A DNA stretch of 64,000 nt from contig CM082582.2 in the NCBI GenBank assembly GCA_040954595.2, forward strand, positions 2,030,303 to 2,094,302, written 5' to 3'. The notes under the pieces were generated by a model that saw only the letters and a program-made list of their open reading frames with translations, had not been told where the DNA came from and did not search any database. Position numbers and translations under genes: made by a program. Each line of letters starts with the position of its first letter. Positions within the stretch are counted from its first letter, which is position 1. Source of the DNA: Balanoglossus misakiensis (Eukaryota > Animalia > Hemichordata). Of the stretch, positions 11,967 through 53,960 are shown piece by piece.

Positions 11967-12022
11967 AGGGTCAGAGTGCCGGAACGACCTGTTTAAACAT
12001 GTCGTTCCAGCACTATGACCCT
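11967..12022. repeat. 56-bp palindrome centred on TTTAAA
   Basis: Arms AGGGTCAGAGTGCCGGAACGACCTGTTT and AAACATGTCGTTCCAGCACTATGACCCT are 28 bp with 3 mismatches. Confidence 0.85.
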
Positions 12023-13370
12023 AAAGTGTTACCTAAGATAGTGTCCAGCGTCTAGCCGTTATTGAAATTATAGACCCTGCAGCGAGACTGAGCATGATTT
12101 GTTGTTGTCATGAAACTCATCTCGTACTCCAGTCACTTTCATACAAAACGGCTATGAGTGTCCAATGGTCTTTGTTGAGACTGTTTGACATTGAATGGCA
12201 TTGACCTCGCGGGAGGATATCCTTCATGAATACAATGCAGGATATAATTTACATTGGCTAAGGGCTTTGAGGTGCACCAAATTAGTAATTTAGACACACC
12301 TTAATTATTACATGCCACCCCAAACTTTTTTAAAGCAAGAAACAAAATTGCAGTGCTTTTCCAATGACGCTTTTTAAAATGTAGAATCAGATTGTTTTCT
12401 TGTCGCTCAGGTGTCCAAAATAAATATAGCTGTGATCAATTCCTACTTAAAGCAAACAAAAGTAAATTGAGTTGAATGGGCACGTCCGGCCCATATTTGA
12501 CCCATTTCACATTTTTTCTTTCTTAGGCTGCATTCACAAACACCTCTGGAGGGGGGGGGGGGGGAATTCATCTTTTACCGCTAATTTTCACATGCCCCCC
12601 CCCCCCTTTCACAACCCGAAATATTTTGAAATCCCCCTTCCCAACTGCCAAAATTTTGAAATCCCCCCATTTTCTTTCACAGAGCAAAACTCATAACTCT
12701 GCTCAAGCGCTCCCATGAAAAGAATTTGAAACTGATGTTTCCCCTCATCAGTGGGTATTAAAACTGAACATTGTTTTTATTTTTTAAGTATTTTGTATGA
12801 TTATAATTAAAAAATATACAACTTAGCTAAAATGCTTAGATGAGTTAATCAGATTTTCAAAGTCCACCTAAAAGATCATTTAATCTTTCCAGGGTGCGGT
12901 TTATGTTGGAGATAGTATCAGTTAGGCTATTTCTCAGAAAATCAATGAACGATCTGCGGACACCCCGAATAATATGTTACCACAACGCTAGCCAGGAAGC
13001 ACATGGGACATTTCACAATGAGGCAGTGAACACTGGGGGGGACCAGACTGACACGTTAACCAATCAGGGAGCTGTATGGTGAATAAATACATATTAATAA
13101 GACCTAACCTACAAGGTCCTGCATAATGAGGCAGTGAACACTGGAGGACCAGACCTACACATTAACCAATCAGGGAGCTGTAAAGTGAATAATGCATTGT
13201 AATAAGACCTAACCTACAAGGTCTGGTGAATAATACATAGTAATAAGACCTAACATATAAGGTCCCTCCAATCAGCGAGCCGCAAGTGGACCTTAGAGAA
13301 GTGGATAAACCAATCAGAACATGTAATACGTGTGCATAGGACCTGTAATGTAGGTCATTTTGAAACAGGA

Positions 13371-13908
13371 CTAGTTCACCATGACCAACCACATGACCCA
13401 GGAAATCGATCTGCTCATAACCCACATACACTTAGTTGGTCTCGCTGTTAACTTTGCCTTTCGTAGTCTGCTCATCAAATCTGTAATTGTCTTGATATGT
13501 TCTTCCCATGATGCAGTGTGGATCAGTATGTGATCGATATAGTTGTCTACGTTCTTCATATCTCTTAACAATCTTCTCATAATTCTGCTAAAAGTCGCAG
13601 CACTATTTACAAGTCCGAAAGGCATTTTGATAAATTGGTATAGCCCATCATGCGTGATAAATGCCGTCAATTGTTTATAATTATCAGTCAACGGGACTTG
13701 CCAATATTCTTTGCTGAGATCTACTTTAGTGAAATAGTGATCCTTGGATAACTTAGCAAAAAGCAAAAAGCTCACTCAGGTCTGGTGTAGGCTCTGCATC
13801 AAACACTGTTATGCGATTGAGCTTTCTCATGTCAACACAACAACGATTGGACCCATCAGATTTCTTCACCGTTCCAGTGGAACAGCATATGGACTCTCTG
13901 AAGGTTCA
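13371..13908 (-). pseudogene. Duplicated Gypsy RT fragment (frameshifted)
   Basis: Copy of 15256-15795, with motifs KVDLSKEYWQ, MPFGLVNSAATF and NYIDH and extra 1-bp deletions. Confidence 0.9.
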
Positions 13909-15255
13909 ACCTAAAGTGTTACCTAAGATAGTGTCCAGCGTCTAGCCGTTATTGAAATTATAGACCCTGCAGCGAGACTGAGCATGATTTGTTGTTGTCA
14001 TGAAACTCATCTCGTACTCCAGTCACTTTCATACAAAACGGCTATGAGTGTCCAATGGTCTTTGTTGAGACTGTTTGACATTGAATGGCATTGACCTCGC
14101 GGGAGGATATCCTTCATGAATACAATGCAGGATATAATTTACATTGGCTAAGGGCTTTGAGGTGCACCAAATTAGTAATTTAGACACACCTTAATTATTA
14201 CATGCCACCCCAAACTTTTTTAAAGCAAGAAACAAAATTGCAGTGCTTTTCCAATGACGCTTTTTAAAATGTAGAATCAGATTGTTTTCTTGTCGCTCAG
14301 GTGTCCAAAATAAATATAGCTGTGATCAATTCCTACTTAAAGCAAACAAAAGTAAATTGAGTTGAATGGGCACGTCCGGCCCATATTTGACCCATTTCAC
14401 ATTTTTTCTTTCTTAGGCTGCATTCACAAACACCTCTGGAGGGGGGGGGGAATTCATCTTTTACCGCTAATTTTCACATGCCCCCCCCCCCTTTCACAAC
14501 CCGAAATATTTTGAAATCCCCCTTCCGAACTGCCAAAATTTTGAAATCCCCCCATTTTCTTTCACAGAGCAAAACTCATAACTCTGCTCAAGCGCTCCCA
14601 TGAAAAGAATTTGAAACTGATGTTTCCCCTCATCAGTGGGTATTAAAACTGAACATTGTTTTTATTTTTTAAGTATTTTGTATGATTATAATTAAAAAAT
14701 ATACAACTTAGCTAAAATGCTTAGATGAGTTAATCAGATTTTCAAAGTCCACCTAAAAGATCATTTAATCTTTCCAGGGTGCGGTTTATGTTGGAGATAG
14801 TATCAGTTAGGCTATTTCTCAGAAAATCAATGAACGATCTGCGGACACCCCGAATAATATGTTACCACAACGCTAGCCAGGAAGCACATGGGACATTTCA
14901 CAATGAGGCAGTGAACACTGGGGGGGACCAGACTGACACGTTAACCAATCAGGGAGCTGTATGGTGAATAAATACATATTAATAAGACCTAACCTACAAG
15001 GTCCTGCATAATGAGGCAGTGAACACTGGAGGACCAGACCTACACATTAACCAATCAGGGAGCTGTAAAGTGAATAATGCATTGTAATAAGACCTAACCT
15101 ACAAGGTCTGGTGAATAATACATAGTAATAAGACCTAACACATAAGGTCCCTCCAATCAGCGAGCCGCAAGTGGACCTTAGAGAAGTGGATAAACCAATC
15201 AGAACATGTAATACGTGTGCATAGGACCTGTAATGTAGGTCATTTTGAAACAGGA

Positions 15256-15661
15256 CTAGTTCACCATGACCAACCACATGACCCAGGAAATCGATCTGCT
15301 CATAACCCACATAACACTTAGTTGGTCTCGCTGTTAACTTTGCCTTTCGTAGTCTGCTCATCAAATCTGTAATTGTCTTGATATGTTCTTCCCATGATGC
15401 AGTGTGGATCAGTATGTGATCGATATAGTTGTCTACGTTCTTCATATCTCTTAACAATCTTCTCATAATTCTGCTAAAAGTCGCAGCACTATTTACAAGT
15501 CCGAAAGGCATTTTGATAAATTGGTATAGCCCATCATGCGTGATAAATGCCGTCAATTGTTTAGAATTATCAGTCAACGGGACTTGCCAATATTCTTTGC
15601 TGAGATCTACTTTAGTGAAATAGTGATCCTTGGATAACTTAGCAAAAAGCAAAAAGCTCAC
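15256..15661 (-). pseudogene. Gypsy reverse transcriptase, C-terminal part (inactive, truncated)
   Basis: Motifs DLSKEYWQVPL, TAF.T..GLYQF..MPFGL.NS.ATF and FLGHVV are present. Catalytic YxDD reads YIDH. A 7-bp duplication (GCAAAAA x2, ~15642-15655) frameshifts it from the upstream ORF, and homology ends after LGHVVGHGEL. Confidence 0.9.
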
Positions 15662-17459
15662 TCAGGTCTGGTGTAGGCTCTGCATCAAACACTGTTATGC
15701 GATTGAGCTTTCTCATGTCAACACAACAACGATTGGACCCATCAGATTTCTTCACCGTTACCAGTGGAACAGCATATGGACTCTCTGAAGGTTCAGCTAC
15801 TCCCATCTTAATCATCGTTTTGACTTCATCTTTCACTGCTTCACGGAGTGCATGAGGGATGGGGTATGGCCTACTGCATACTGGTGTTGGATCCATCAAC
15901 TTGATGTCATGGAAACCCAGGTTGGTCTTACCACGAATATCAGTTAACATATCTTTGTAATTGATCAGCAACCTCCTCACCACTTGCTTCTGTATGTCTG
16001 ACAAGTTGTCACATACATTCACATCTGCAGCAAATTCTTTCTGCTTGAATGCAGGAACCCGCAGTAAGTCATCGTTTACTTTAACCCCTGTGTTCTCTTG
16101 TACTTCTGAAGATTCATAACTCTGCTCATCTATCACAGATACACACACAATCTCAAGAAGTCCAGCTGATACTTCATCTAGCTGATCAGTTCTTCGATAG
16201 TACCTCTTCAACAGGTTGGCATGGAATGTTTTCACCCTATGACCAAAGTCAATCTTGTAATCCATATTGCTCACTTTCTCCACCACTGGAAAAGGACCCT
16301 TCCAGTGCATAAGTAGTTTATTATGGTCAGTAGGTAGTAGCAATAACACCTCGTCACCTTTGTTGAACTTCCTCCATTTGGCCTTTCTATTGTAGTAGGA
16401 CTTGTATTTGCCTTGTGATATCTTCAGTTCTTGTCTTGCTAAATCGCATGCCTTCTTTAATTTCTTTTGAAGATCAAGGATGTATTGATAAGTCGTTTTG
16501 GTTTCTGGTTCACTGATCTCTCCAGTCCATAGTTCTTTCAATATAGCCATTGGACCACGCACACTCCTCCCATAAAGTAACTCAAACGGAGAGAATCCTG
16601 TGCTCGATTGAGGCGTTTCTCTGTAGGCAAATAGTAAAGCATTCAGATAACGATCCCAATATGTTGGACGTTCCTCACACATCTTCCTGAGCATGAGTTT
16701 CAATGTACCATTGAACCGTTCCACTAGACCATTGAATGCTGGGTGGTATGGGGTGGTAGTCATCTGCTTTATAGACAAAAGCCGGCTGACCTCACGCATC
16801 ACATCTGATGTAAATTGAGTTCCTTGATCTGTCAGAATTTCACGTGGACACCCCCCCACTCTTGAGTAGATGTCCAGGAGCGCCTCTGCAACAGTCTTGG
16901 TATCAATGTTAGTCAATGCAACAGCCTCCGGATAGCGTGTTGCATAATCAACAACAGTAAGTATGTACCTATTCTTGCGTTCAGTGCATGGATGAATAGG
17001 GCCAACCAGGTCTACTGCAATACGTAGGAAAGGGATATCTATTAGTGGCATACTTCCAAGTGGTACCTTGGTCACCCGTCCCTTTGGTTGTGTCCGTTGA
17101 CATGAATCACAGGACTGACAGTAACGGGAAACATCTGATGTTAGCCCAGGCCAAACGAAGTTGCTGAGGATCTTGTCTGTGGTCTTGTGAGTTCCGTGGT
17201 GACCACCCAGCACCGATTCATGGGCTAGTCTCATCACCTGGTTACGATACACTCTGGGAACCACCACCTGTAACAGCTTTTCACCAAATTGGACCATTGG
17301 CGAATTGAACTCTCTGTACAGGATCCCATCTTTCATGATGAACTTCAACCTACCTCCATTCCTAGTCACTTTCTCGTCACCCAAAATTGCCTTCTCACGT
17401 AGTTTGTCAAGAGTGGAGTCTTCTTCTTGAGCTTGTTGAAGCTTCCCTGGCATCACCAC
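15639..17459 (-). CDS. Gypsy (Gmr1) pol: integrase (HHCC, rve DDE, GPF) followed by the start of RT
   Basis: Motifs AHES..GGHHG, CQSCDSCQ, AVDLVGP, ILTDQGTQF, NGLVERFN and WKGPF, then PY.IP, PSESPYA.P..V.K.DGS.R.CVD.RKLN (RT N-terminus). Confidence 0.92.
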   Translation of the reverse strand: MVMPGKLQQAQEEDSTLDKLREKAILGDEKVTRNGGRLKFIMKDGILYREFNSPMVQFGEKLLQVVVPRVYRNQVMRLAHESVLGGHHGTHKTTDKILSNFVWPGLTSDVSRYCQSCDSCQRTQPKGRVTKVPLGSMPLIDIPFLRIAVDLVGPIHPCTERKNRYILTVVDYATRYPEAVALTNIDTKTVAEALLDIYSRVGGCPREILTDQGTQFTSDVMREVSRLLSIKQMTTTPYHPAFNGLVERFNGTLKLMLRKMCEERPTYWDRYLNALLFAYRETPQSSTGFSPFELLYGRSVRGPMAILKELWTGEISEPETKTTYQYILDLQKKLKKACDLARQELKISQGKYKSYYNRKAKWRKFNKGDEVLLLLPTDHNKLLMHWKGPFPVVEKVSNMDYKIDFGHRVKTFHANLLKRYYRRTDQLDEVSAGLLEIVCVSVIDEQSYESSEVQENTGVKVNDDLLRVPAFKQKEFAADVNVCDNLSDIQKQVVRRLLINYKDMLTDIRGKTNLGFHDIKLMDPTPVCSRPYPIPHALREAVKDEVKTMIKMGVAEPSESPYAVPLVTVKKSDGSNRCCVDMRKLNRITVFDAEPTPDLSELFAFC

Positions 17460-18654: not shown

Positions 18655-18660
18655 GCTGCA

Positions 18661-18710
18661 TATGGAAAGCCACAGCTGTCTTAAGTCCATTGTTACCATT
18701 ATACGACGCT
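18661..18710 (+). repeat. Left TIR (50 bp)
   Basis: TATGGAAAGCCACAGCTGTCTTAAGTCCATTGTTACCATTATACGACGCT is the exact reverse complement of 29252-29301. Confidence 0.97.
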
Positions 18711-19555
18711 CATACATCTTTATACAATGTGCATTCATCATTATACGATGCTCATACATCATTATACGCTGTTCGTACATCATTATACGACACTCGTACA
18801 TCATTATACAATGTGCATATATCATTATACGATGGGCATACAACATTATATGCTGGTCGTACATCTTTATACAACGCTCATACATGATTATACGCTGCTT
18901 GTACATCATTATACGACACTCGTACATCATTATACAATGTGCATATATCATTATATGCTGGTCGTACATCATTATACGACGCTCATACATCATTATACGC
19001 TGCTCGTACATCATTATACAACACTCGTACATCATTATACAACACTCGTTCATCATTATACAATGTGCATATATCATTATACGATGTGCATACAACATTA
19101 TATGCTGGTCGTACATCTTTATACAATGTGCATACAACATTATACGCTGGTCGTACTTCATTATACGATGCTCATACATCACTATACAATGTGCGATCAG
19201 TATACGCTGTGCATACATCATAAAATGATGCTCATACATCATTATACAATGTACATACATCATTATACACTGCCCATACATCATTGTACGCTGTGCATAC
19301 AACATTATACGCTGGTCGTACATCATTATACGACGCTCATACATCATTATACAATGTGCATACGCCATCATACGCTGTGCATACATCATTATACGTCGCT
19401 TATTCACCATGATACTATGTGCATACATCATTATGCGCTGTGCATACATTTTTATACGACGCTCATACATCATTATACAATGTTCATACAACATTATATG
19501 CTGGTCGTACATCATTATATGCTGATCATGCACCATGATATGATGCTTGTTCATT
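18697..19555. repeat. Left subterminal 21-bp minisatellite (~40 units)
   Basis: Unit of about CATACATCATTATAC plus a variable 6 nt (GACGCT/AATGTG/GCTGTG/GATGCT). Confidence 0.95.
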
Positions 19556-19629
19556 ACATTACAGCAGAGACACCTTTATTGCAGGCTGTTTGTTAACTGG
19601 TTCCTAACAGTGTATTTACGATAGAGGGC

Positions 19630-21072
19630 ATGTATTCTGATCAGCTGTTTCTATCGGCCATTTTGGATGTCAAGTATTTGATTTGTAAGTCTTCACAATT
19701 TGGCAAAATGGCATCGTCTCCTATGTCCACCATACTGCAGCGACTGAATTTGAGCAACCTTACTGGAGTGTTTGAAAGGGAGAGGATCACTCCAGATATT
19801 GTTGGTAAGCTATCCAGCTGGGAAATGGAGTCCCTTGGAGTGGTTAATCCTGGAGACAGAATGGCTTTGAGCGTGACCTGTACCACCTATGGGATGCAAG
19901 TTCCACCTAAGGTTTGGGAAAGTGGGGGTGCACCACAGTTCATCATTCCAAAAGATATCCTGGAGAACCATTTAGATGAGGATTTTAGCATCTCTGAAAT
20001 AGCATCAATGATAGGAGTTTCACAAAGTACCATTTACAGAAGAATGCGACAATATGGTCTTAGCAAGATGGACTTCACAGATATATCTGAAAGTAACCTA
20101 GATTCATATGTCATCGAATTGGCACGAGAGTTCCCATACTGTGGAGAGAGAATGCTAACTCACATTTTGAAGAATAGAGCAGGCATTAAAGTCCAGCGGA
20201 TGCGCCTCCGTGACAGTCTTCACAGAATTGACTCAGATGGTGTAGATGCAAGACGAAGGGGTCGTTTACATCGCAGAATATACAATGTTAAAGGACCAAA
20301 TCACTTGTGGCACATTGACACAAACCACAAGTTGATTAGGTGGCATTTTGTGGTAATTGGCGGTATTGATGGTTTTAGCCGTCTGCCAGTCATGCTTCAA
20401 TGTCGGGACAACAACAAGTCAGCTACTCTGTTACAGTGTTTCAAAAGTGCTGTAGGCGAATATGGCGTTCCAAGTAGGGTGCGCTCCGATCAGGGCATGG
20501 AGAATGTTGGCATAGCAGACTACATGATATTAAGCCGTGGGCCTAATAGGGGAAGCATGATCACAGGGAAAAGCGTACACAATCAAAGAATTGAGAGGCT
20601 GTGGAAAGATGTTTTTGAAGGTGTTCTTGCGTTATATTACCAGTTATTTTATTTTATGGAGGAGAAGGGTATTTTAGATATACTGAAGCCAAGCCATATA
20701 GCTGCACTTCACCATGTGTATTTATCTAGAATAAATCATAAATTAAAAATATGGAATAACGCATGGGCCAATCACAGAATGAGGACGACAAGAACATCAC
20801 CTCTGCGCTTATGGGTTTCCGGTCAGTTGCAGAACCCAGTTGGGATTGAGTTAGCTGCTGATGAAGTCACAGAATATGGCGTTACTGGCGTGATTCGTGA
20901 GGATGCTGATGAAGCAGATTCGAGACCTGTGATCGATGCACCATCATTTGAGTTAAATGAAGCCTGTACGGAAGAACTATATCGCACCATTCCACAAACA
21001 TGGACATCCAATAACTATGGTATTGAGAGGTACCTAGATGCACTATCCATAATTAATCATCACCATGATTAA
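19630..21072 (+). CDS. DDE transposase (IS3EU-like) with N-terminal SAM-like domain and HTH; intact, single exon; likely start ATG 19708 (454 aa)
   Basis: SAM-like region at 19723-19881 and [29 protein letters not shown]. The catalytic triad lies in [19 protein letters not shown] and NQRIERLW. There are no stops or frameshifts. Confidence 0.92.
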
Positions 21073-21501
21073 TTCTGTTCGTTCTAGACTTAGAGCGGCA
21101 ATAGCTGTGATTTTGAACATTTTTTGGCACTAATAACACAGGAAATGTTTTATTAAAAATAAAAATCAGAGAAAACAGATCGATAGTTCAGTACAATTAT
21201 TGCTGCTTTAACATATGGAGCACTTAGAAAACAAACAGATACAATGTATCATTTGACAATGCATGTTTATTCAAAGAAAACATACACAACTTCTCGACAA
21301 CAATGAGTTTTACTAGCCAAATCCTCAAGGTCAAAACGAAATGACAACAACACCGGCGCCGCCGATAACACCAAGTCACATGAATGAAAAAAACAGCTGA
21401 TCACTGGAAAGCAGGTCATGAACGGGAAATTTTAGATTTCTATCGTTTTCACTGCTTATTTCGGCGATTCCTAACGTAAACAGTCGAAGCATGTATGATA
21501 A

Positions 21502-21587
21502 AGGGGTTATTACACGAATTTTGGTCGATAATGCGACGCATTCTCGAATACGACGCGTTATCGACCAAAATTCATGTAATAACCCCT
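21502..21587. repeat. 86-bp hairpin between the convergent genes
   Basis: 42-bp arms AGGGGTTATTACACGAATTTTGGTCGATAATGCGACGCATTC and GAATACGACGCGTTATCGACCAAAATTCATGTAATAACCCCT, with 4 mismatches and a 2-nt spacer. Confidence 0.9.
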
Positions 21588-21746
21588 AATTATAAAAATG
21601 AAACAGTAATTGTTAACGTTTGTCAGTTGGAACTTGTAACTTATACATGTAGTATAAAGCAACTAAACATATACCCCCAGTACTCAAATGGTTGCCATAT
21701 TATGTATCCAATGCATAGAAGGAAATCAAACCATACAGGCACCATG

Positions 21747-22006
21747 TCATACTCTACCAAAATGTCTAGTGGTAAATGCATAATCATACATCTCATGCAT
21801 CCTATCTACTGACAATAGGTCATGCTCAAGAGTGGGTCTCGGTAGCTTCAATAAATTGATGCAAGTATCTGACGTTGGAATAAAAGATATTTCATATGGA
21901 ATAAATTCAATACTTGGTGCAGTTCCAAACCCTAACACTGGTTCTTGCTCTGTTCCCGTTGTAAAGACAAGTACATCTTCAAGTGTGACTGATCCTCTTC
22001 TATTAC
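21747..22006 (-). CDS. HECT gene exon 8 (C-lobe, catalytic Cys at 21861-21863)
   Basis: TLEDVLVFTTG.EQEPVLGF...PTSDTCINLLKLP...FGRV*, with the conserved Phe at -4. Confidence 0.9.
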
Positions 22007-25000
22007 CTTTTAGAGAAAAATATGCATTGTTGTCATGAATCATGCAGTTGACCATACATTGCCATAAGGGACCGTTCAGTTTTTACGGCTGGGGGGGGGG
22101 GAGGCAAGTTTGTGTCACCGGTTTTCAAAATCAGGCCGACCCCCCCTTCACCCAGGACCAAAAATTGATGACCCCCCCTTTGACAGACCCAAAAATATGA
22201 TGACCCCCCCCCCCCCCACGGCCAAAACATTCGCCGTCCTGATCCTATGTACACTGTATGCAATAAAGGGAATGAGGCTCCTCACACCTCAATTCTAAAG
22301 TATTATTGAAGTATATAGTATATCGTTGCAACAAAGAAATCTATGAACAAATTAAAATGAGAAGTCACTACAATAGTTGCTAGAATTGGTAAAACAAGAA
22401 AAGTGGCGGCGGTGGGCGTGGGAGGGGGTGTCCCCCTCCCACATAAGAAAATTTTGTAAAATTAGGTGCTCAAAGTTGCATTTTAATGAACTCAAAAACA
22501 AATTAACTCAATGTTAGGGAGGACAAATTTTAATTTTGCCACTCCATTCAAAGTAAGCATCGGGGGTGGGGTGGCAATTTAGACTCTGCCCTGGTACACT
22601 AGACAAACCAGCAAAAAATGAAATGTGGCGGAGAATGAAGGGGGTGGGTGGGTTAGAAAATTTTGTAAAAAAAGGGGCGCGAAACTGCAATTTTGTGGAC
22701 TCAAATGCAAAAGTTCGGTGGCAAAAGTATGTGACCCCCCTAAACGTTTAAAAAAAACAGATGACCCCCCCCCCCTTTTGGACTTCAAAATTTGAGTGAC
22801 CCCCCCCCCCCCCTGGATTTTGCCCCCCCCCCCCCCCCCCGGCCGTAAAAACTGAACGGTCCCTAAACCATGAAAGTTATATTTTAACCCATTGATATAG
22901 CCAAGACATTACTTACTTGCAACTTCACGAAGATATTTGTTGAATACTGCATATACTTGGCCTTCATATCTTCTATCATTAGAACCATTCTCACTGAACG
23001 ATGGTGTTAGCATTGCCTTTAGCCTTGGCAAAGTGAGTTTTGAGGATGTATTTTCACGCAGAAGATGCTGGAATGTAGGCAGCTCTATACACATCTGTAT
23101 TAAGTAATATATAGTGTGTAATATATGTGTATTAATACACTTCTCTTGTAGACACACAAAAAACATGACAATGGAAGCAAACCATATACAATGTAATAAA
23201 GTTCATGTTTATGTTCTCAGTCTGACAATAATATAGAGAGACTTCAATATGAACACTGATTACAATCACCCCACAAAAGCACTAGAGATTGTATTTAGTA
23301 CTCCCATTGTGATATACATGTATTGTGACAGTATACTACTACCGGTAGTAGTGTTGTTTAAAATTCCAGTACTATAATGTTTTTTTAATGAATTCTGACC
23401 AAGACATGAATGGAAAAGTTGGCTAAGTAATATCAGATACATGTAGATAAGGTATGCAATACCTCAGTTTGTAGTTTCAACACTTTGTTAAAAGGTGATT
23501 TTTGACCGTGTATGAAGTGAGTTATTTACATCTGTCCTATATCTTATATGGACCAAACCAAAATTTTACCAAAATACAAGAAATTATGGTGGAAATCAGT
23601 TTATGAATAAGCCAATTACTACCAGTTAAAATGCATGGACTGATGCTAAAAAGTGATTGTTCTATACATTACATATGTTAACAGTGTACATGTTCATAGA
23701 ATCCTACCCTATATTTATTAAACTATGAAACTATTCCATTCTTTTTAATATCCAAATTACCCTAATTAAAATAAACCAATGTGCATAAAAAATAATCAAA
23801 TCTTGTATTTGTTGCATTTGTCTTTTTTTTATATTCTAAGCAAGATTTTCGTACTGACAGACATCCATGACATAAGACATGGTGGCTATTAACCACTAAA
23901 GCTGTTATAACTCAATAATCTATAAATAGTTGTTTAAACTCACCTTATGTATCCCTAATTTGTTTAGGCCTTCCTTTAATTTCTCCAGACATGGATTTAA
24001 TGACACTAAGCCTGTAGAGAACAGCTCTGATAAGACATCGGCACCTAGGAATTGAGGCAATACTCCATTCTGCAATATGCTCACAGCTATAAGAATCAAT
24101 AATTTAAGTTACATTTTGAAGAGCTCCTGTGTGAGTTGCGAGAAGTTCAGTCTAACGAGTCATATAACATGACCCCATGTGTATGTCTTGATTGGCATTC
24201 GTGAACTATTTAACATGCAATTTGTCCACACAATACTCGTAGATAAGCATTAGTCATGCATATTCCATGTTTGAATGGGTTTTGGCATTGGCATGAATCA
24301 ACTTCGAACCAAAGAAAGTTTAGAAAGAACTCCCGTGTTCTGAGGGAATCGCAATAGTGAAAGCAATTTGATCCACAGTATTAAAATTTACAATACAAAC
24401 AGAAAACCCTACACAACCCCTACATGTGCATAATCCCAGAATACCAATAAGTATACCAGCTAACAGCTGAAAATTGGCTAATTTAGGTTTGTCTTATTGA
24501 AATTTCTAGAGCTATCAGTGGAGCAGCTAATAAATTGCAATTTATTATGCAAATTAGATAATTAATATGCACTGGTGTCAACCAAAAAGTATAATCAGAT
24601 CTTCGCATTTTCCAAATGCATCTGTGTATCAAGTTTCATTGGAATCTGTTGAACGGTGCATGAGATATCAATGGAACAGCTAAGAATTGGCTAAGAATGT
24701 AGTAAAAGTAAAAAAGGATGTCCATATGAACATGCCAGAACAAAAAATATCTTACCTAAGATCTGACCAACAGTCACGTAATCATCACAGAGGTGGTCTT
24801 TTAAGCCATTGTCAAAATATTTCTCTTTCAATATCCTTAACATTGAATTCAAAAATTCTTTACGTGGACCGCCATAGTCCTTTGCTCTCTGTGTGAAATT
24901 AATAATATAAATATTGATGTTAGTATATGGTAATAGATTAATCATTTTAAGGCAATAAAAATCCATTCAAACAAATGTTTTTCTTTATTTCAAATTACCT

Positions 25001-28000
25001 CTCCATAAAAGTCTACTTCAAGCGTTGTTCGTAGTTGCCGTATAGACAAGGCAGACATTTCATCAAAACCAGTTGATGAAAGGCACAGTCTGTCAACGCT
25101 AATCACAGTTGTATCGCCTTCGTCACACTGATCCATTGCTTTGATTTCCAGAGCTCTACCAATGATCATTTTAGCTTGATAGTACCGGAGAATCTCCACA
25201 GGGTTTTCTATACTATGCTCCTTACAGTAATCAACAGTTTCTATAACAATAGCTTCCACTTTCCTCTTTTCTGCATCATCTCCCACTTCATCTTCTTCAT
25301 CGACCACCTACAATGGGCAAAACAAGATTAATAATTTAACATAAGTTAGGAAATGTCTATATACCATATTTGGTCCAACAAAGATCAATAATGATATACA
25401 ATCTGTCAATGTATATAAAAATGACTGCCCATATATTTTCCTTCTTTTAAACTGGACTGATTAGGGAGTTTGTGTACATTTTCTGTACCTTTTTGGCAGA
25501 CATCCGTGCATATTAATTTTCACCTAAAATTGCTTTTTTGAGACCACAAAAATATGTAATGGCACATGTAACAAAATTAACAAAAAACAACATTTTCAAC
25601 TTGATTTTTTTACAATTTACCAGTTAGTGGCCCAAAAAAAGGAAACTCAAGGAAAACAAATAATTAAACACTTACAAAATTGTCTCGCTCCATTTCCACA
25701 TTTATATCAGAATTGGTCTGATTTTCATCAGATACAGCAGTAGCTGTAATATAATCATTCCTGAAAGAAAGAAGATGGTCCTCTTTTCAGTGTCATATTC
25801 TCTATGTTATTATTAAATTATATGTAGAAACGTCCATAAGATTATATGTCACAGAAACAGACGACTAGAACTTGGGTGCTTCCATTGTGGCAAGAATTTT
25901 AAAAGAAATTCATTTGTGCCCACATATACAGATCTGGAATTTCCGTCTGTGAACCAAAATTCACGCACCAATCGCCATTACCAAGCACACCTGATTCATA
26001 CGGGACAACGAAGCGCCCCAAAACGCCTCACAACTTGTACAATGGCCCCTTTTTGAACTTTATGCGAGGAAGGCGCAGCCATCTTGAATCTCGCTCGCAC
26101 ACTAGCTATACAGTGCATTATGGGTAAAAATCATGTTTATCAAGAAAGGATAAAAATAGGAAAATCTACCCCCCTTCAACCTATTTAATTTTACTGTACT
26201 ACACACTATATTTTAGACTACACTAACAAATGAGTATAATCCCAGTTATAATGCAAAAAGTTAGTTCAGTGAATTAGCATGAACTGAAATTGCTCAGGTG
26301 TTGCAATGATATTGCACCATCTGGACAATGTTGATTGTCATTATATTTACAACTGTTCTTGTATTTACATTTTCTGATGGAATAAATTTCATTCATCATA
26401 TGCAAATTAAATGGCAACATAACCAAATCAAATAAGATTATGTATTTTATTATGATGCCATGGGAACATGCACAGAAAGTGAAAGGCCAGAAACTGGCTC
26501 AAGTCAGCAGGTCACAGGAATTTGAAATTGTTATTGTTGAAAGAAATATACAAGCCAAAACAAAATTATGCTGGAGGTTCCTGACTTCTGCCTGACTTCA
26601 GGAGCATAGCTGTATCAATGTGCCAAATGTAATTGAAAATGGTATTAATACTTACACATGTACCGGTACATGATCAGCAACCTCACTCATAGATTCAACA
26701 GCTGCCTATAAAATGAAATAATATTGGAAGTAAGCTACATATCATAAACTATGTATGTACAGTGTATTATCACAAGCACCAAAACTGACCAAAATGTTCA
26801 CCAAAACTAGATGCTAGCATATACATGCATGTATCCCCCAACCCATTGCTCATTTGCATATATCAGAATATGAATCTAGAGCAGATGCTTTTGGGTAAAT
26901 ATTGGTAAATACTGACTTACAAAGACAACATTAATTCTAACATGTTGGTTATGTTCATCCCTACAATACAAACATGAATGAACACACCAAAATAGTTTGA
27001 GAGAATGAGTTGTTTTCACCAAAAATACACGAGTATTCCAAATTTTCTTTTCTCATTGCTCACAGTTGCAATTTCTTTCTTGATGATAACGAGTTATCAA
27101 TCGTTTTTTCACAAAATGTTCATAGTCCCCCCCCTCCACCCACCCAGATTTTCAAATTAGAAAAAAACATACATAAATAAATATTAAACATGGGGTTGGG
27201 CTTATTGTTATTGTTAAGTTTGGTGTTTATATGCATGCAATGTAAAACCCCCGTATTCTTGGGTTGCACGACGCAATGTTACCATGGATAAGATTCGAAT
27301 TAGCGGCCATTTTTGCAAAATATACTGACAACACCAGTAAGATCGAACGTTATTAGGCGCAGTGTCTGCCAGTGACGTCACGTGCAAGCCAAGAATTTCT
27401 AAACTACTGTTATATGTTCACACTTACCCCTACATCTTCATCTGAATCAGATAAACATTTACATGTCCACATGTGATCACGTAATTCCCGTACATCAATA
27501 AGTTGATTGCACCCTTGGCACTTTTCTGTAACACTTGACGAAATTCCAATGGATGATATTGGCTTTGTTGACAGGTTTCGTTGTATAGGCCTCAAATAAA
27601 TCTTAGACTGTGAGCCTAAATTAGCCTTCAGATCAGGTATTGACCAGTCACAGCTTATTACAGACAGATTACGTGAGTTAGGTTGACACTGCAGTAGTTC
27701 AAATCCACCGGCATCTTTCAATTGAGAATATCCAGCCATATCATTGTCATCATCTTTCGCAGATGACAAGGTATCCAAGAACTCCCCCTGAGAACACGAA
27801 GCATCAAATTTGATCTTTTTTGGCCCTAACCCAGCACGATGTAAAACTTGACGTTCGGCAGATGTTGGAACTTTAAAGGCATGCCTGTCCGACAAACAAA
27901 CAAAATTTCCTGTCCATGTACGCTTCGGTTGATTGACCGTGCCACTCCGGCGCGTGCCTGTCCTAGGTCTACATCCCCTTGGTGCCATTCTCGGGTTAAA

Positions 28001-28255
28001 AAGCACACTTCTTTCTTCTCGAACAGCGCTGGCCATACTGTCATTCCTGGTAGTAGACTCACCGGTTCCGATCGTACTTATACTTGTAGCCGTTTTACAC
28101 AGGTCACGGATGCGAACGCGATCCCCCAATGTTGAAACTCCCAGTCTAGTTAATTCACCATCAGTCATGGAAAGAACCGTTGAAGGATCCACTCGTTCGT
28201 CTAGGAAACGCTGTAAGAGCGCTGGAAGTTCGAGCTTAGTCAAGATACTTTCCAT
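21747..28255 (-). CDS. Transposon-borne 8-exon gene, 661 aa: SAM-like, Ubl-like, C2HC zinc finger, acidic linker, HECT E3 ubiquitin ligase (G2E3-like family)
   Basis: Exons 28255-27428, 26705-26656, 25760-25676, 25307-24999, 24888-24756, 24086-23944, 23094-22917 and 22006-21747. All introns are GT-AG and phases 0,2,0,0,1,0,1 are compatible, giving 1986 nt with no internal stop. HECT motifs are VDFYGE|RAKDYGGPRKEF, LKEGLNKLG, VLVFTTG...P..GF and PTSDTCINLLKLP, with terminal FGRV. Confidence 0.85.
22068..22863. mobile_element. PIF/Harbinger-type MITE in HECT intron 7
   Basis: TIR GGGACCGTTCAGTTTTTACGGC / GCCGTAAAAACTGAACGGTCCC followed by G/C tracts. TAA flanks both ends (22065-22067 and 22864-22866). 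Confidence 0.85.
22917..23094 (-). CDS. HECT gene exon 7
   Basis: MCIELPTFQHLL...PSFSENGSNDRRYE...YLREVA, with TACAG acceptor and GTAAGT donor. Confidence 0.85.
23944..24086 (-). CDS. HECT gene exon 6 (not in the ORF track)
   Basis: AVSILQNGVLPQFLGADVLSELFSTGLVSLNPCLEKLKEGLNKLGIHK, with TTATAG acceptor and GTGAG donor. Confidence 0.85.
24756..24888 (-). CDS. HECT gene exon 5
   Basis: RAKDYGGPRKEFL...VGQIL, with CACAG acceptor and GTAAG donor. Confidence 0.88.
24999..25307 (-). CDS. HECT gene exon 4
   Basis: VVDEEDE...LEVDFYGE, with TTGTAG acceptor and GTAAT donor. Confidence 0.85.
25676..25760 (-). CDS. HECT gene exon 3 (85 nt)
   Basis: TTTCTTTCAG acceptor and GTAAG donor; phase 2 to 0, complementing exon 2. 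Confidence 0.65.
26656..26705 (-). CDS. HECT gene exon 2 (50 nt)
   Basis: TTTCATTTTATAG acceptor and GTAAG donor; phase 0 to 2. Confidence 0.65.
27428..28255 (-). CDS. HECT gene exon 1 (SAM-like, Ubl-like, C2HC finger)
   Basis: ATG at 28255 with an in-frame stop upstream. Motifs MESILTKLEL...LGVSTLGDRVRI, FVCL...AGLG.KKI.F...GGFELL...IYLRPIQ and CQGC-x11-H-x3-C. Donor GGG|GTAAGT. Confidence 0.85.
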
Positions 28256-28417
28256 TCTGACTGGGTCAAACACTCAGATCATAAACAAATATGGCGCATG
28301 TTACGTATTTAAGTATGTTGCGCCCTCTTTGACAGAATTGCGGTTAGGCATAGCATATCATAATGACATGTCCGCATAGTATAAAGCCAAACGCGCGCCG
28401 TATGTTGAACGGGCATA

Positions 28418-29265
28418 GTATCATGGTGAATGAGCGACGTATAATGATGTATGCACAGCGTATAATGATGTATGCACATTGTATAAAGGTGTATGAGCGT
28501 CGTATAATGATGTATGGGCAATGTATAATGATTTATTCACAGCGTATAATGATGTATGCACATTGTATAAAGGCGAATGAGCATCGTATAATGATGTATG
28601 GGCAATGTATAATGATGTATTCACAGCGTATAATGATGTATGCACATTGTATAAAGGTGTATGAGCGTCGTATAATGATGTATGGGCAATGTATAATGAT
28701 TTATTCACAGCGTATAATGATGTATGCACATTGTATAAAGGCGAATGAGCGTCGTATAATGATGTATGCACATTGTATAAAGGTGTATGAGCGTCGTATA
28801 ATGATGTATGGGCAATGTATAATGATGTATTCACAGCGTATAATGATGTATGCACATTGTATAAAGGTGTATGAGCGTCGTATAATGATGTATGGGCAAT
28901 GTATAATGATGTATTCACAGCGTATAATGATGTATGCACATTGTATAAAGGCGAATGAGCGTCGTATAATGATGTATGGGCAATGTATAATGATGTATTC
29001 ACAGCGTATAATGATGTATGCACATTGTATAAAGGCGAATGAGCATCGTATAATGATGTATGCACATTGTATAAAGGTGTATGAGCGTCGTATAATGATG
29101 TATGGGCAATGTATAATGATTTATTCACAGCGTATAATGATGTATGCACATTGTATAAAGGTGTATGAGCGTCGTATAATGATGTATGGGCAATGTATAA
29201 TGATGTATGCACATTGTATAAATATGTATGAGCTTCGTATAATGATGTATAAGCGTCGTATAATG
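28418..29265. repeat. Right subterminal 21-bp minisatellite (~40 units), inverted relative to the left
   Basis: Unit of about GTATAATGATGTATG plus 6 nt, with a recurring 84-bp four-unit pattern. Confidence 0.95.
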
Positions 29266-29301
29266 GTAACAATGGACTTAAGACAGCTGTGGCTTTCCAT
29301 A
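29252..29301 (-). repeat. Right TIR (50 bp)
   Basis: Exact reverse complement of 18661-18710. Confidence 0.97.
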
Positions 29302-29730
29302 GCTGCAGGCATTTGGTTGTATGTGGATACATCCTTACCTTGTAACAATATGCACTGAGATTCACCCCCAGTCATCTTTTCCCACTTCTGAGCAGTGGCG
29401 TAGCGCTGAAAACGTTGAAGGTACGCATCCATATCATCAACATCCTCACGAAAACCCTGTAGTCTCGGAGCACGCGCTTTGGCCAAATTATTTTCAGTAA
29501 CCTGCTGTTCTGTATTTTCCCCTTTCAATTTTAATTCTTGTAAGTGAATTTGCATTTTCAGTATCTCTCTCTCATGTTCCTCGCGCCGCCTATTATCTTC
29601 TCTCTGCTCCTCTCTCTCAGTAGCCCTAAGATCCCTCTGTCTAATTTGTTCCTCTCTAACATAATCTTTTAAAGCAGTCCCTTCCAACCCAAATTTTCTC
29701 CCTATCTTAGATATTCTTTCTGCATATATG
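29302..29730 (-). CDS. Gypsy (Gmr1) gag N-terminal part
   Basis: KIGRKFGLEGTALKDYV, a coiled coil, then PRLQGFREDVDDMDAYLQRFQRYA. It joins in frame to 18654 across the TSD (YNQMPAA|SANNYDELKPELL). No clear ATG was found. Confidence 0.85.
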
Positions 29731-31536: not shown

Positions 31537-33430
31537 CTGTTGTGATTATTGCTGGAATAGGCAATGTTTTAATCTACCTGCAAATACTGGTGTGACAAAG
31601 ATTGTCGGCCAGTCAACATCACCAACGATATTAACAATATAAAAATAAATAAAATTTCAACGATTCAACTTCTTTTCTAGCTTCCTATCTGGATAGTTTG
31701 TTTTATTTTACTCTAAAGATCACCTTTCTTCTAGGCCACGTGGCAAGAGACGTTTTCAACTTCTACTATCATCGATGCGAGAGTACTATAGTATTCTCAT
31801 ATACACGGACAAAGGCCACCAAAATAAGAGAATCATTTGGTCAAATGGTAGAGGGCGCAAAAACAGATATTTCAAATGACAAAATTTTCCGATAAACGTG
31901 TTTAATCAAATCAAACTGTGCTCAATGGTATTCTTGCAAAAATTGAATACACATGAAACAAAATACAGCAACTGCCATGAACAACAAGTTTATTCATGAC
32001 AAAATTCAATTTTTTTAATTAGTGATTTCCATTATCAGCTGAAAACTAAAATTAGATTGTCATCTTGAACAGTATAAAATCAGCGAGCAATTAGACATTA
32101 AGTACCCAGCATACTAAAATAAAACCATGTAAACATGCACAATTAGATAATCAAAGATTTTTATTTATTCACCATGATGTTTTTAATTTATGTCAAATCA
32201 AAGTACTTGAAGTTATGGAAGATCAATTAAAATAGAAAACTGTAATTTTAATGGCTCGGTAATGTATCCAATTTCTGCCCAATATATGAAATTTCCGAGT
32301 CAGCAACTGAAGAATTCGTGGGGAAAATATTTACGTGATGTGTAACAGAATTCACTTTGAAGTAAGGAGTTTTTGTAAAATCAACATGCATATTACAATT
32401 TATTTGTAAAAATTGATTGGCAATGGAAAATTGGCGTTTAAATATATAGTACTTCAAGATGAACAGATAAAATATAAGTTATTACAGATGTCATTTTACG
32501 ACAACAAGGAATGTTCAATCGTTCTTTAATATCTTTAATGATGCCAGGTCAAATGTCACCTTTGCAAATTCAACCACTGGTACCATAGCCATTTCAAATG
32601 TAGCCAAAAGTGCGCCACCACTTTCTTCAAACATACTGAAACCATCTACAGGTTACTGTAGTCCTATATCTCTTGGCATCCATGGCAGTTTAGCTAGACA
32701 TGAGCTGGCAAGGGGTGACCTGCAAGCTTTGAACTCTGGCTTCGGTAATGTCGACTCTGGCTCTGGCATATACTTGCAGGTCCATATGACCTTGGGGTGA
32801 ACATGGTCATGAAGAAATAAATAGAATATGTTTGGTACATTGTCAACTTCATTTTAAACTTTCAAAAAAATAACAATATGGTGAGTAATGTTTTTGTTGT
32901 TTTCAAAGAGACTCACCATACACTTTAGTAAATCAAAGACTTGAAAAAGTTTTGAGGACTATCATTTGTCTGAATCTCGGACCGCGAGGCACATACTACC
33001 TTAAATAGTTTCACTCGCAGCTTCTTGTGGGCAGTTTCTCCTTGCGTACCTGTACAGACACACCAGGAGGCCGTTCCCGATGAACAACTCAACCCACATG
33101 AAAACATTCAAGCGTCTGGTCACACCCATTTCCGTCAAACAAGAACATGAATGAAACTGCGGAGGAAGAGAACAGGAGAGTGCCCATTAACCCTGTAATG
33201 GCCAATCATTTACTGGCACAAGGTTCCGGATGTACGATCACTGGAGTTGAAAATAAGGTCATGGATTTGAAAATCATTTTGAGTTATGAAATTGAAATAC
33301 ATATTTTTCATTGTGGATTCTCCGACATAAATATTATCAAAATCAATAAGGATTGGCTTTTTAATTTATGACATATAACGCCATGAATCTAGCCCATTAA
33401 TACAAAGGCAATACTTAAACACATTTCGGG
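31537..33430. repeat. ~1.9-kb unclassified dispersed repeat, copy 2
   Basis: Direct copy of 8596-10492 with scattered substitutions. Confidence 0.9.
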
Positions 33431-38029: not shown

Positions 38030-41000
38030 CCATCATTAGCAATGTCAAATTACAGTGCTTTTGGCCACATATCAACCTGGGGATTTACAGACAACTTAAA
38101 ATCCCCCTCAGCATGCATTTAATCCCCATGTCAAAGTGCAGAGCTTGCATCACCATCTACCCCTTACAGTACTTATGGCCATGTATTAACCTAGGGATTT
38201 ACAGTCAACATTAAATACCCATGCATATATTAACCTGGGAATTTACATTCAACATTAAATACCCATGCACATGCATTAAATACGTATGCCAAAGCGCAGA
38301 GCTTGGATCACCATCTACACTGATGCATCATTAGGCTTGCTACGCCATTTCCCCTAATGCAAAGAATCACATTCAATGTCACCATTGTATTAGCTATGTC
38401 AAATTTCAGTGCTTTTGGACTTGTATTAACCCAGGGATTTTCAGTCAACTTTTAATCCCCATATGCATTTAATACCCATGTCAAAGTGAAGTGTTTGCAT
38501 CACTATCTACCGGGATGCATCATCAAGCTTGCATCGCCATTTACCCTGATGCAAAGAATCAGATTCAGTGTCACAATTTCATTAGCAATGTAAAATAAAA
38601 TTGCTTTTTGCCAAGTATTAACCTGGGGATTTACAGACAACTTTAAATACCCATGTATATACATTTAGTACCTATATCAAAATGCTTAGCTTGCATCACC
38701 ATCTACTCAGATGGATCATTAGGCTTGCTACGCCATTTCCCATAATGCAAAGGATCAGATTCAATGTCACCCTTACATTAGCAATTTTAAATTACAGTGC
38801 TTTTGGAGATGTATTAACCTGGGAATTTACATTCAACATTAAATACCCAAGCACATGCATTAAATACCTATGTCAAAATGCATAGCTTGCATCACCGTCT
38901 ACTCCATTGCATCATTAAGCTTGCTTTGCCATTTGCCCTAATGCGGAGAATTACATTCAATGTCAACATCGCATTAGCAATGTCAAATTACAGTGCTTTT
39001 GGACGCGTATTAATCCAGGGATTTGTAATCAACTTGAAATCCCCATATGCATTTAATGCCCATGTCAAAGTGAAGTGTTTGCATCACTATCTACCATGAT
39101 GCATCATCAAGCTTGCATCGCCATTTACCCTGATGCAAAGAATCGGATTCAATGTCATCGTTGCATTAGCAATGTCAAATAAAATTGCTTTTGGCTACGT
39201 ATTAACCTAGGGATTTACAATCAATTTTAAATCCCCATATGCATTATATTCCAAGTCAATGTGAAGGGCTTGAAACACCATCTACCCTGATGCATCTTCA
39301 AGCTTGCTTCACCATTTACCCATATTCAATGTAACCTTTGCATTAGTAATTTTAAATTACAGCGCTTTTAGCCATGTATTAACCTCGGGATTTAGAGTCA
39401 ACTGTAAATATCAATGCGTATGCATTAAATACCCATGTCATAGTGCAGTGTTTCCATCACTGTTGACCCCAATACATCATCAAGCATGCTTCACAATATG
39501 CCCTGATGCAAAGAATCAGATTCAGTGTCACCATTTCATTAGCAATGTCAAATTATAGAGCTTATGGCCATGTATTAACCTGGGGATTTACAGACAACTT
39601 TAAATACCCATGTATATACATTTAGTACCTATGTCAAAATGCTTAGCTTGCATCACCATCTACTCAGATGGATCATTAGGCTTGCTACGCCATTTCCCAT
39701 AATGCAAAGAATCAGATTCAATGTCACCCTTACATTAGCAATTTTAAATTACAGTGCTTTTGGAGATGTATTAACCTGGGAATTTACATTCAACATTAAA
39801 TACCCATGCACATGCATTAAATACGTATGCCAAAGCGCAGAGCTTGGATCACCATCTACACTGATGCATCATTAGGCTTGCTACGCCATTTCCCCTAATG
39901 CAAAGAATCACATTCAATGTCACCATTGTATTAGCTATGTCAAATTTCAGTGCTTTTGGACTTGTATTAACCCAGGGATTTTCAGTCAACTTTTAATCCC
40001 CATATGCATTTAATACCCATGTCAAAATGAAGTGTTTGCATCACTATCTACCGGGATGCATCATCAAGCTTGCATCGCCATTTACCCTGATGCAAAGAAT
40101 CAGATTCAGTGTCACCATTTCATTAGCAATGTAAAATAAAATTGCTTTTTGCCAAGTATTAACCTGGGGATTTACAGACAACTTTAAATACCCATGTATA
40201 TACATTTAGTACCTATATCAAAATGCTTAGCTTGCATCACCATCTACTCAGATGGATCATTAGGCTTGCTACGCCATTTCCCATAATGCAAAGGATCAGA
40301 TTCAATGTCACCCTTACATTAGCAATTTTAAATTACAGTGCTTTTGGAGATGTATTAACCTGGGAATTTACATTCAACATTAAATACCCAAGCACATGCA
40401 TTAAATACCTATGTCAAAATGCATAGCTTGCATCACCGTCTACTCCATTGCATCATTAAGCTTGCTTTGCCATTTGCCCTAACGCGGAGAATTACATTCA
40501 ATGTCAACATCGCATTAGCAATGTCAAATTACAGTGCTTTTGGACGCGTATTAATCCAGGGATTTGTAATCAACTTGAAATCCCCATATGCATTTAATGC
40601 CCATGTCAAAGTGAAGTGTTTGCATTACTATCTACCATGATGCATCATCAAGCTTGCATCGCCATTTACCCTGATGCAAAGAATCGGATTCAATGTCATC
40701 GTTGCATTAGCAATGTCAAATAAAATTGCTTTTGGCCACGTATTAACCTAGGGATTTACAATCAATTTTAAATCCCCATATGCATTATATTCCAAGTCAA
40801 TGTGAAGGGCTTGAAACACCATCTACCCTGATGCATCTTCAAGCTTGCTTCACCATTTACCCATATTCAATGTAACCTTTGCATTAGTAATTTTACATGG
40901 CTAAAAGCGCTGTAATTTAAAATTACTAATGCAAAGGTTACATTGAATATGGGTAAATGGTGAAGCAAGCTTGAAGATGCATCAGGGTAGCTGGTGTTTC

Positions 41001-53000: not shown

Positions 53001-53960
53001 CAAAATGCATAGCTTGCATCACCATCTAGTCCAATGCATCATTAAGCTTGCTTAGCCATTTCCCCTAATGCAAAGAATTACATTCAATGTCACCATTTCA
53101 TTAGCAATGTCAAATTACATTGCTTTTGGACACGTATTAACCCAGGGATTTGTAATCAACTTGAAATCCCCATATCCATTTAAACCCATGTCAAAGTGAA
53201 CTGTTTGCATCACTATCTACCGTGATGCATCATCAAGCCTGCATCGCCATTTACCCTGAAGCATAGGATCAGATTCAATGTCACCATTGCATTAGCAATG
53301 TCAAATAAAATTGCTTTTGGCCACGTATTAACCTGAGGATTTACAGTCAACTTCAAATCCCCATATGCGTTATATTCCAATGTGAATGTGAAGGGCTTGT
53401 AACACCATCTGTCCTGATGCATCATTAAGCTTGCTTCGCCATTTACCCTGATGCATAGAATCAGATTCAATGTCACTGTTGCATTAGCAATGTCAAATAA
53501 AAGTTCTTTTGGCCATGTCTTAACCTAGGGATTTATAATCATCTTTAAATCCCCATATGCATTATATTCAAAAGTCAATGTGAAGGGCTTGAAACACCAT
53601 CTATCCTGATGCATCATCACGTTTGCTTCACCATTTACCCATATTCAATGTCACCCTTGCATTAGTAATTTAAAATTACAGTGGTTTTGGCCATGTATTA
53701 ACCTCGGGATTTAGAGTCAACTTTAGATATCAATGTGCATGCATTAAATACCCATGTCAAAGTGAAGTGTTTGCCTCACTATCTACCGGGCTGCATCATC
53801 AAGCTTGCATCACAATTTACCCTGATGCAAAGAATCAGATTCAATGTCATCGCTGCATTAGCAATGTCAAATAAAATTGCTTTTGGACACGTATTAACCC
53901 AGGGATTTTCAGTCAACTTTTAGTATCCCTGTATGCATTTTAAACCCCGGTGTCAAAGTT
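38030..53960. repeat. ~195-bp monomer satellite with higher-order repeats (957, 1541 and 2304 bp)
   Basis: Monomer spacing is 196 (38682 to 38878). Matching variant ORFs recur at 42743/45047/47351 and 43523/45827/48131 (2304), 38682/40223 (1541), and 38682/39639 and 51517/52474 (957). Confidence 0.95.
40894..42066 (-). repeat. Inverted segment within the 195-bp satellite
   Basis: Monomers are reverse-complemented between TTTTA|CATGGC (40895) and TTGCTAAT|TTTAAA (42066). Confidence 0.93.

Follow-up and report, generated by a model that had tools for sequence, protein, structure and literature searches.

Does a DNA transposon of an animal carry a ubiquitin ligase gene of its own, and what would the element use it for? 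The question is raised by a stretch of 64,000 nucleotides from the hemichordate Balanoglossus misakiensis (GCA_040954595.2, contig CM082582.2, positions 2,030,303 to 2,094,302 of the forward strand; called the window here and numbered from its first letter), in which a gene for a HECT-type protein lies inside a complete element that fits the IS3EU/GingerRoot superfamily (18661-29301, 10,641 bp), bounded by perfect 50-bp terminal inverted repeats (TIRs) starting with TATGG. Our analysis indicates that the HECT gene is very probably a maintained accessory gene of this element. We also favour, with considerably less assurance, the reading that it serves the element as a ubiquitin ligase of its own, which would be docked on the transposase by homologous SAM domains.

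The HECT gene lies wholly within the element on the minus strand and is convergent with the transposase gene, which is on the plus strand at 19708-21072. Its eight exons, and a mobile element in its last intron, are the following.

27428-28255, minus strand: exon 1, amino acids 1-276, with a SAM domain (1-60), a probable ubiquitin-like domain (about 110-230) and a C2HC zinc finger (C246, C249, H261, C265)
26656-26705, minus strand: exon 2, amino acids 277-293, linker, placed by splice signals and frame alone
25676-25760, minus strand: exon 3, amino acids 293-321, acidic linker, placed by splice signals and frame alone
24999-25307, minus strand: exon 4, amino acids 322-424, start of the HECT N-lobe
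24756-24888, minus strand: exon 5, amino acids 425-468, with the GGPRKEF motif
23944-24086, minus strand: exon 6, amino acids 469-516, spanning the point of a likely loss of ~90 residues from the canonical HECT N-lobe
22917-23094, minus strand: exon 7, amino acids 517-575
22068-22863, no strand assigned: non-autonomous element of 796 bp in intron 7, with GGGACC..GGTCCC ends and a TAA duplication
21747-22006, minus strand: exon 8, amino acids 576-661, with the C-lobe, Cys624, the phenylalanine at -4 and the stop; Pfam HECT at 2e-06, above the cut-off

Joined together, the exons give 1986 nucleotides, i.e. 661 amino acids and a stop without any internal stop codon, and all seven introns run GT..AG. 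The joined protein aligns with the homolog P0017 from end to end (residues 1-661, 43.6% identity), and homologs from a hemichordate, corals and bivalves align across the same span at 36-44% identity. An earlier note on this DNA had proposed the eight GT-AG exons, the uninterrupted frame of 661 amino acids and its position between the TIRs, convergent with the transposase, and the joining and the end-to-end alignment confirm all of this. The catalytic cysteine (PTSDTC, Cys624) and the phenylalanine at -4 (..HFGRV*), said there to be retained, are both present.

The matches of 66 homologs to the protein end at residue 424 in 11 cases, at 468-469 in three, at 514 in one and at 575-577 in four, and these residues are the sites of introns 4-7 in the window gene; 38 other matches reach the C-terminus and nine end elsewhere. 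Many of the database homologs are read-through open reading frames (ORFs) from genomic DNA. P0016 and P0018 are complete ORFs on Logan contigs of 2.6-2.9 kb, which is consistent with transcripts or with intronless copies. Exons 2 and 3, missing from the list of window ORFs of at least 60 amino acids, lie in the unconserved acidic linker; they have good splice signals and their joint skipping keeps the frame, and hence, as far as splice signals and frame can tell, the gene would have either eight exons or, if both are skipped, six. The 796-bp element in intron 7, which we take to be Harbinger-like, leaves the HECT frame untouched. It has an extremely high depth in X1 and X2, two DNA runs of one sample, which may be the sample behind the window itself.

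The remaining parts of the element are listed below.

18655-18660, plus strand: left target-site duplication GCTGCA, the six letters shared at the empty-site joint
18661-18710, plus strand: left TIR, 50 bp, perfect, starting with TATGG
18697-19519, plus strand: left subterminal array, about 38 copies of 21-bp units
19708-21072, plus strand: IS3EU transposase, 454 amino acids, intronless, with a SAM domain, a helix-turn-helix and a DD34E core (D204, D261, E296); Pfam rva_4 at 5.5e-77
28438-29250, minus strand: right subterminal array of 21-bp units, inverted with respect to the left array
29252-29301, minus strand: right TIR, ending with CCATA
29302-29307, plus strand: right target-site duplication GCTGCA

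IS3EU/GingerRoot elements are described as having TA..TA ends (TAYGG..CCRTA), a 6-bp target-site duplication and an IS3/IS481-like DDE transposase without the HHCC finger (passages of PMC10045372 and PMC12730594), and as encoding two proteins (cited in PMC8232023); a second ORF in these elements, which had been mentioned in the earlier note, is in print in that form. The window element has TIRs with the termini TATGG..CCATA, GCTGCA on both flanks and two encoded proteins. Its transposase has rva_4 and helix-turn-helix matches along with D204, D261 and E296, agrees at all 93 columns conserved in at least 95% of 121 aligned sequences, and matches the NCBIfam IS481 model at 5e-16, below that model's cut-off. 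No H2C2 family is among the 25 families listed for it, though one is present in the neighbouring Gypsy ORF. Judged by its ends, duplication and transposase type, the element fits IS3EU/GingerRoot. Units of 21 bp, about 38 of them at each end, form two mutually inverted arrays, which are likely to be transposase-binding sites.

The element was inserted into the gag region of a Gypsy-type long terminal repeat retrotransposon (SCAN, zinc knuckle and integrase matches). Contigs of X1 and X2 join position 18654 directly to 29302 with six letters shared; this joint is the empty site in a high-copy retrotransposon, and hence what inserted was the whole unit between the TIRs, both genes included. In relative depths, which are without a single-copy baseline, X1 has 140 for the transposase, 146-161 for the HECT-gene contigs and 1700-2000 for the Gypsy flanks, and X2 is uneven, with 496 for the transposase versus 91-650 for the HECT-gene contigs. 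The 3' ends of the two genes face each other across a short palindromic repeat (about 21490-21600, with perfect 16-bp core arms at 21516 and 21573), whose depth is high and whose ends are loose, suggesting a further small mobile element.

Is the HECT gene a possession of the element or a passenger? A recently captured host gene that rides along without function (Pack-type cargo) would have its precedent in the Selaginella GingerRoot elements, of which 22/77 carry host gene fragments (a passage of PMC6839031), and the introns of the HECT gene would suit such an origin. However, the window gene is not a fragment, as it is colinear with its homologs over the whole length, and its position and orientation are constant next to transposases whose sequences diverge by 30-70%. 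We scanned metagenomes with the HECT-family alignment and collected 74 loci. A transposase lies downstream of the HECT gene in 16 of the 21 loci with at least 1.5 kb of downstream sequence (12/17 clusters at 95% identity), and the numbers are 12/17 and 9/13 when at least 2 kb and 3 kb are demanded. All 16 downstream transposases are on the strand opposite to the HECT gene, and none was found upstream in the 25 loci with at least 1.5 kb on that side. Inverted arms enclose both genes at L001, L010 and L011 among nine loci examined, with TATGG ends where visible, and no such arms were seen at the other six. The automatic search recovered no second element with both ends and the target duplication, most contigs being too short.

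The homologs are also dispersed, near-identical multi-copy genes. Sinanodonta woodiana has six HECT copies on four contigs with 98.6-99.8% identity, and several copies in Hydractinia are at least 99.7% identical, which is the pattern of a mobile gene. In Desmophyllum pertusum the accession numbers of the transposase and the HECT-family protein follow each other at two loci, with both proteins of a pair on one contig (KAJ7386861/62 and KAJ7371302/01). The ratio of nonsynonymous to synonymous substitution rates (dN/dS) between sister elements is 0.30 (380 codons) and 0.23 (207 codons) for the HECT gene and 0.09 and 0.11 for the transposase, leaving out the saturated deep pairs (3/5 HECT pairs and 3/6 transposase pairs). 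Among the differences listed for X1 and X2, the four in the HECT exons all leave the protein unchanged (p about 0.003 under neutrality), and in the transposase four of seven are synonymous. X1 also contains a second variant of exon 7 (depth 66 of 213) with three synonymous sites at 23017, 23041 and 23059, which is either another copy or an allele. The HECT and transposase distances are correlated across 14 elements (Mantel rho 0.40, p 0.002). L058 appeared as a mismatch in the distance matrix, which we attribute to an overlap of limited length; judged by eye, the N-terminal ORF of L058 is similar to that of the L001/L010 type.

Some of these data weigh against a maintained gene. Five of the 21 loci lack the downstream transposase, the HECT copies there being frameshifted or incomplete; the tallies for X1 and X2 cover 40 of 154 sequence differences; and without close pairs and short fragments the Mantel test gives rho 0.33 and p 0.07 for nine elements. 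Overall, the fixed convergent pairing, the TIR arms at three loci and the multi-copy dispersal uphold the proposal that the gene is a maintained accessory and not decaying cargo, and dN/dS, which had been suggested as a check, is well below 1 between sister elements. We consider Pack-type cargo very improbable and already largely refuted.

What kind of protein does the element maintain, then? The domain order of the 661 residues is SAM, probable ubiquitin-like domain, zinc finger and HECT. In the structure model of exon 1 (predicted local distance difference test score, pLDDT, 85.3), residues 1-60 match the SAM domain of tankyrase-1 with Z 9.6 and a root-mean-square deviation (rmsd) of 2.2 over 59 aligned residues. 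Residues about 110-230 match TBK1 (Z 7.9, rmsd 2.3, 79 aligned) as well as Ufm1 and the ubiquitin-like domain of Get5; the matches to this region are mostly titled as ubiquitin-like or are proteins that we take to be so, and at middling Z values of 7-8 they suggest a ubiquitin-like domain. A Foldseek search with the same model gave no match at E <= 0.001. In the zinc finger, C246, C249 and C265 are invariant across 37 sequences and H261 is nearly so.

The C-terminal part has the bilobed HECT fold, as indicated by the Pfam match above the cut-off and by the full-length model of the homolog P0007 (pLDDT 82.9), which matches the Smurf1 HECT domain with Z 21.7 and rmsd 3.3 over 262 aligned residues, and HUWE1 and UBR5 with Z 21.7 and 21.3. 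The Cys624 motif aligns to the cysteine motif of E6AP, and the cysteine is kept in 38 of the 39 homologs that reach the C-lobe. The window protein has the phenylalanine four residues from the C-terminus, a residue with a role in HECT ligases, and an aromatic residue is near the C-terminus in nearly all homologs. An ESM Atlas search returned solely HECT or unnamed clusters, and no relatives of either gene were found in the viral contigs searched. The HECT family is large, with 124 clusters matching a profile of its 205 C-terminal positions at E <= 1e-30 and 643 matching it at 1e-10.

This HECT domain is, however, a short one. The GPRKEF motif and the cysteine are a median of 191 residues apart in 98 family proteins (range 88-218) and 193 apart in the window protein, versus about 285 in AREL1, as counted from alignments. 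About 297 residues of the P0007 model span 374 in Smurf1, and in three homologs position 156-157 of the 306 in Pfam HECT is reached 64-69 residues past GPRKEF. A Pfam scan of N-lobe fragments detected 0/5, which leaves the gap without a left bracket. In the P0007 model about five residues join helices 482-490 and 496-506, and the small N-lobe subdomain of canonical HECT domains sits between the equivalents of these two helices. That subdomain carries the site for the ubiquitin-conjugating enzyme, E2 (a passage of PMC3077247). A canonical HECT domain has about 350 residues and includes this subdomain; the domain studied here is short by ~90 residues across the family, and our data suggest that the E2-binding small subdomain has been deleted. 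We therefore class the window protein as shortened HECT-type, not as a canonical HECT E3 ligase. With this subdomain likely absent, ordinary charging by an E2 is doubtful, and ligase activity is not assured despite Cys624. Of the earlier claim of an intact E3 ligase, the open frame and Cys624 stand; the intactness is overstated, as the HECT domain is short and the window copy is changed at 19/155 family-conserved columns. Most of these changes are conservative, but they include Asp622 beside the cysteine.

The protein might accordingly be a pseudo-ligase, or a ubiquitin-binding scaffold that cannot be charged and aids transposition by binding ubiquitin or repair factors, and the family-wide lack of ~90 residues, which likely include the E2 site, speaks for this explanation. 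On the other hand, the conservation of the cysteine in 38/39 homologs and the near-universal C-terminal aromatic are hard to explain without catalysis, and an E2 anchored through an adaptor has a precedent (title of PDB 1zvd). We hold the scaffold to be unlikely.

The N-termini of the two genes suggest a partner for the putative ligase. Both the transposase and the ligase open with a SAM domain, and the two are 36% identical to each other in the window. They are homologous as profiles (hhalign 97%, E 1e-10), each profile scoring the SAM domains of the other gene at a median of 35-39 bits; on Pfam SAM_1 the two window domains score 18-21 bits. The SAM region is present in 109 of 121 close transposases. 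Its presence is concordant between both genes in 5/5 lineages: it is on both in the window, the Desmophyllum pair and the L050 family (the L050 ligase SAM coming from sister contigs), and on neither in the L001 family and the L004/L010/L011 family, where both genes open with other sequences. The ligase SAM has kept a basic GDRxRxR end helix, and the transposase SAM has kept acidic mid-loop residues with an altered end helix. Given the chemistry of SAM domains, these features would suit a head-to-tail heterodimer.

In the SAM-less coral-type subfamily (L001 3167-4720, L004 4934-6496 and L010 4236-5783) the transposase has an extra N-terminal region of ~90 residues, and the HECT gene is intronless and opens with a short helical-looking segment. 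These N-terminal regions are a candidate alternative docking pair. Two Desmophyllum pertusum proteins, P0232 and P0234, are named 'Fibronectin type 3 and ankyrin repeat domains protein 1', yet they start like SAM-HECT proteins, and the naming is likely a mis-annotation.

We propose that the ligase SAM docks on the transposase SAM, so that the ligase would be carried with the bound transposase to the subterminal 21-bp arrays, where it would ubiquitylate the transposase complex or adjacent proteins. Ubiquitylation might then time the disassembly of the complex or limit the dose of transposase. Since the loss of the subdomain that normally binds E2 is likely, ubiquitin would need another route, e.g. 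an E2 recruited through the ubiquitin-like domain or the zinc finger. We judge a transposase-docked ligase of the element's own to be somewhat the better bet. An alternative hypothesis is that the ligase is indeed the element's own but targets host silencing or restriction proteins, the transposase being at most a guide. Such a counter-defence accounts for the conservation and the pairing equally well, and fungal IS3EU elements carry TET/JBP and alpha-kinase genes, TET being proposed to aid escape from silencing (a passage of PMC12730594). However, the homologous SAM domain of the transposase, present or absent together with that of the ligase, indicates the transposase as the partner, and no separate substrate-binding module was recognised in the protein. 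We regard counter-defence as doubtful, if a serious competitor.

Several observations count against a docked ligase. The spacing of 191 versus about 285 residues means that the canonical E2 site is likely absent. The window copy departs from the family at more conserved columns than any other in the set (1-18 in the other homologs), and D622 in it replaces an N found in 16/17 full-length homologs. The five lineages with concordant SAM domains may be perhaps two clades and hence a single event. The window transposase SAM has a serine where 98% of 50 sequences have an arginine. SAM domains also self-polymerise, and two of them need not bind each other. A bolder version of the transposase-docked ligase is that the family represents a new kind of HECT ligase, which has shed its E2 subdomain, is co-assembled through SAM domains and is charged non-canonically, and that the 'G2E3-like' HECT proteins of animals are for the most part products of this transposon gene and of domesticated genes descended from it; taken as a whole, we think this rather unlikely.

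Outside the element, a 1.9-kb direct repeat (96.9%; 8596-10492 and 31537-33430, 23 kb apart) encloses the whole nest of Gypsy and IS3EU elements. A tandem 1.9-kb duplication (99.5%; 12020-13908 and 13910-15795) holds part of the Gypsy reverse-transcriptase region and is either a true duplication or an assembly artefact. A satellite of 192/196-bp units occupies about 38170-54000, with a higher-order pattern and an inverted block at 40891-42066.

With these results a domain identity can be given to the second gene of this transposon superfamily, which is widespread and little studied, and the enzymes known to remove ubiquitin in transposons are joined by one that would attach it. The minimal HECT domain found here in nature is a test bed for the bypass of the E2-binding subdomain. 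Being compact, with two genes and intact ends, the element allows a direct test of the long-suggested part of ubiquitin in transposition. The results are also a caution for genome annotation: in molluscs, corals and echinoderms, the dispersed genes labelled 'HECT-type E3 ligase' and some of those labelled 'G2E3' may belong to transposons.

How does the system compare with those already described? G2E3 and the 'GL-Metazoa' class IV proteins are likewise highly divergent animal HECT proteins (a passage of PMC3673628), and the window family may be linked to 'GL-Metazoa'. However, G2E3 has three N-terminal RING/PHD-like fingers (same source), and the window protein has instead of this triplet a SAM domain, a probable ubiquitin-like domain and one C2HC finger. 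The suggestion that many G2E3-like annotations are such transposon genes finds thin support: one of ten more distant clusters has a name of this type (Holothuria KAJ8050615.1, G2/M phase-specific E3 ligase), and none of the source names listed for closer homologs is G2E3. The protein shares with Smurf1, HUWE1, UBR5, E6AP and AREL1 the bilobed fold, GGPRxE, a PTxxTC motif aligned to PTSHTC of E6AP and the phenylalanine at -4. Unlike in these canonical HECT proteins, the histidine of HTC is an asparagine in the family and an aspartate in the window protein, and the N-terminus is SAM, probable ubiquitin-like domain and zinc finger.

Among transposons, the word HECT is absent from the main text of PMC10045372, PMC6839031, PMC12730594, PMC11934779 and PMC8232023, and our literature searches found no report of a HECT gene in IS3EU; Repbase Reports, which lay outside the search, may already name the domain. 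The window element resembles IS3EU/GingerRoot in its ends, 6-bp duplication, DDE type and two genes, and fungal members are described with an alpha-kinase gene opposite to the transposase. It differs in that its second gene encodes SAM, a probable ubiquitin-like domain, a zinc finger and HECT, and in the N-terminal SAM domain of its transposase. There is a functional parallel with the ubiquitin and SUMO proteases of transposons, namely OTU and Ulp1 in Ginger1, Mutator and Helitron elements, for which it has been suggested that the ubiquitin pathway takes part in transposition (passages of PMC2836005). In both cases a DNA transposon retains an enzyme of the ubiquitin system. Those enzymes remove ubiquitin or SUMO, and the Ginger1 ones are fused to the transposase, whereas the window ligase would add ubiquitin and is encoded by a separate, convergent gene.

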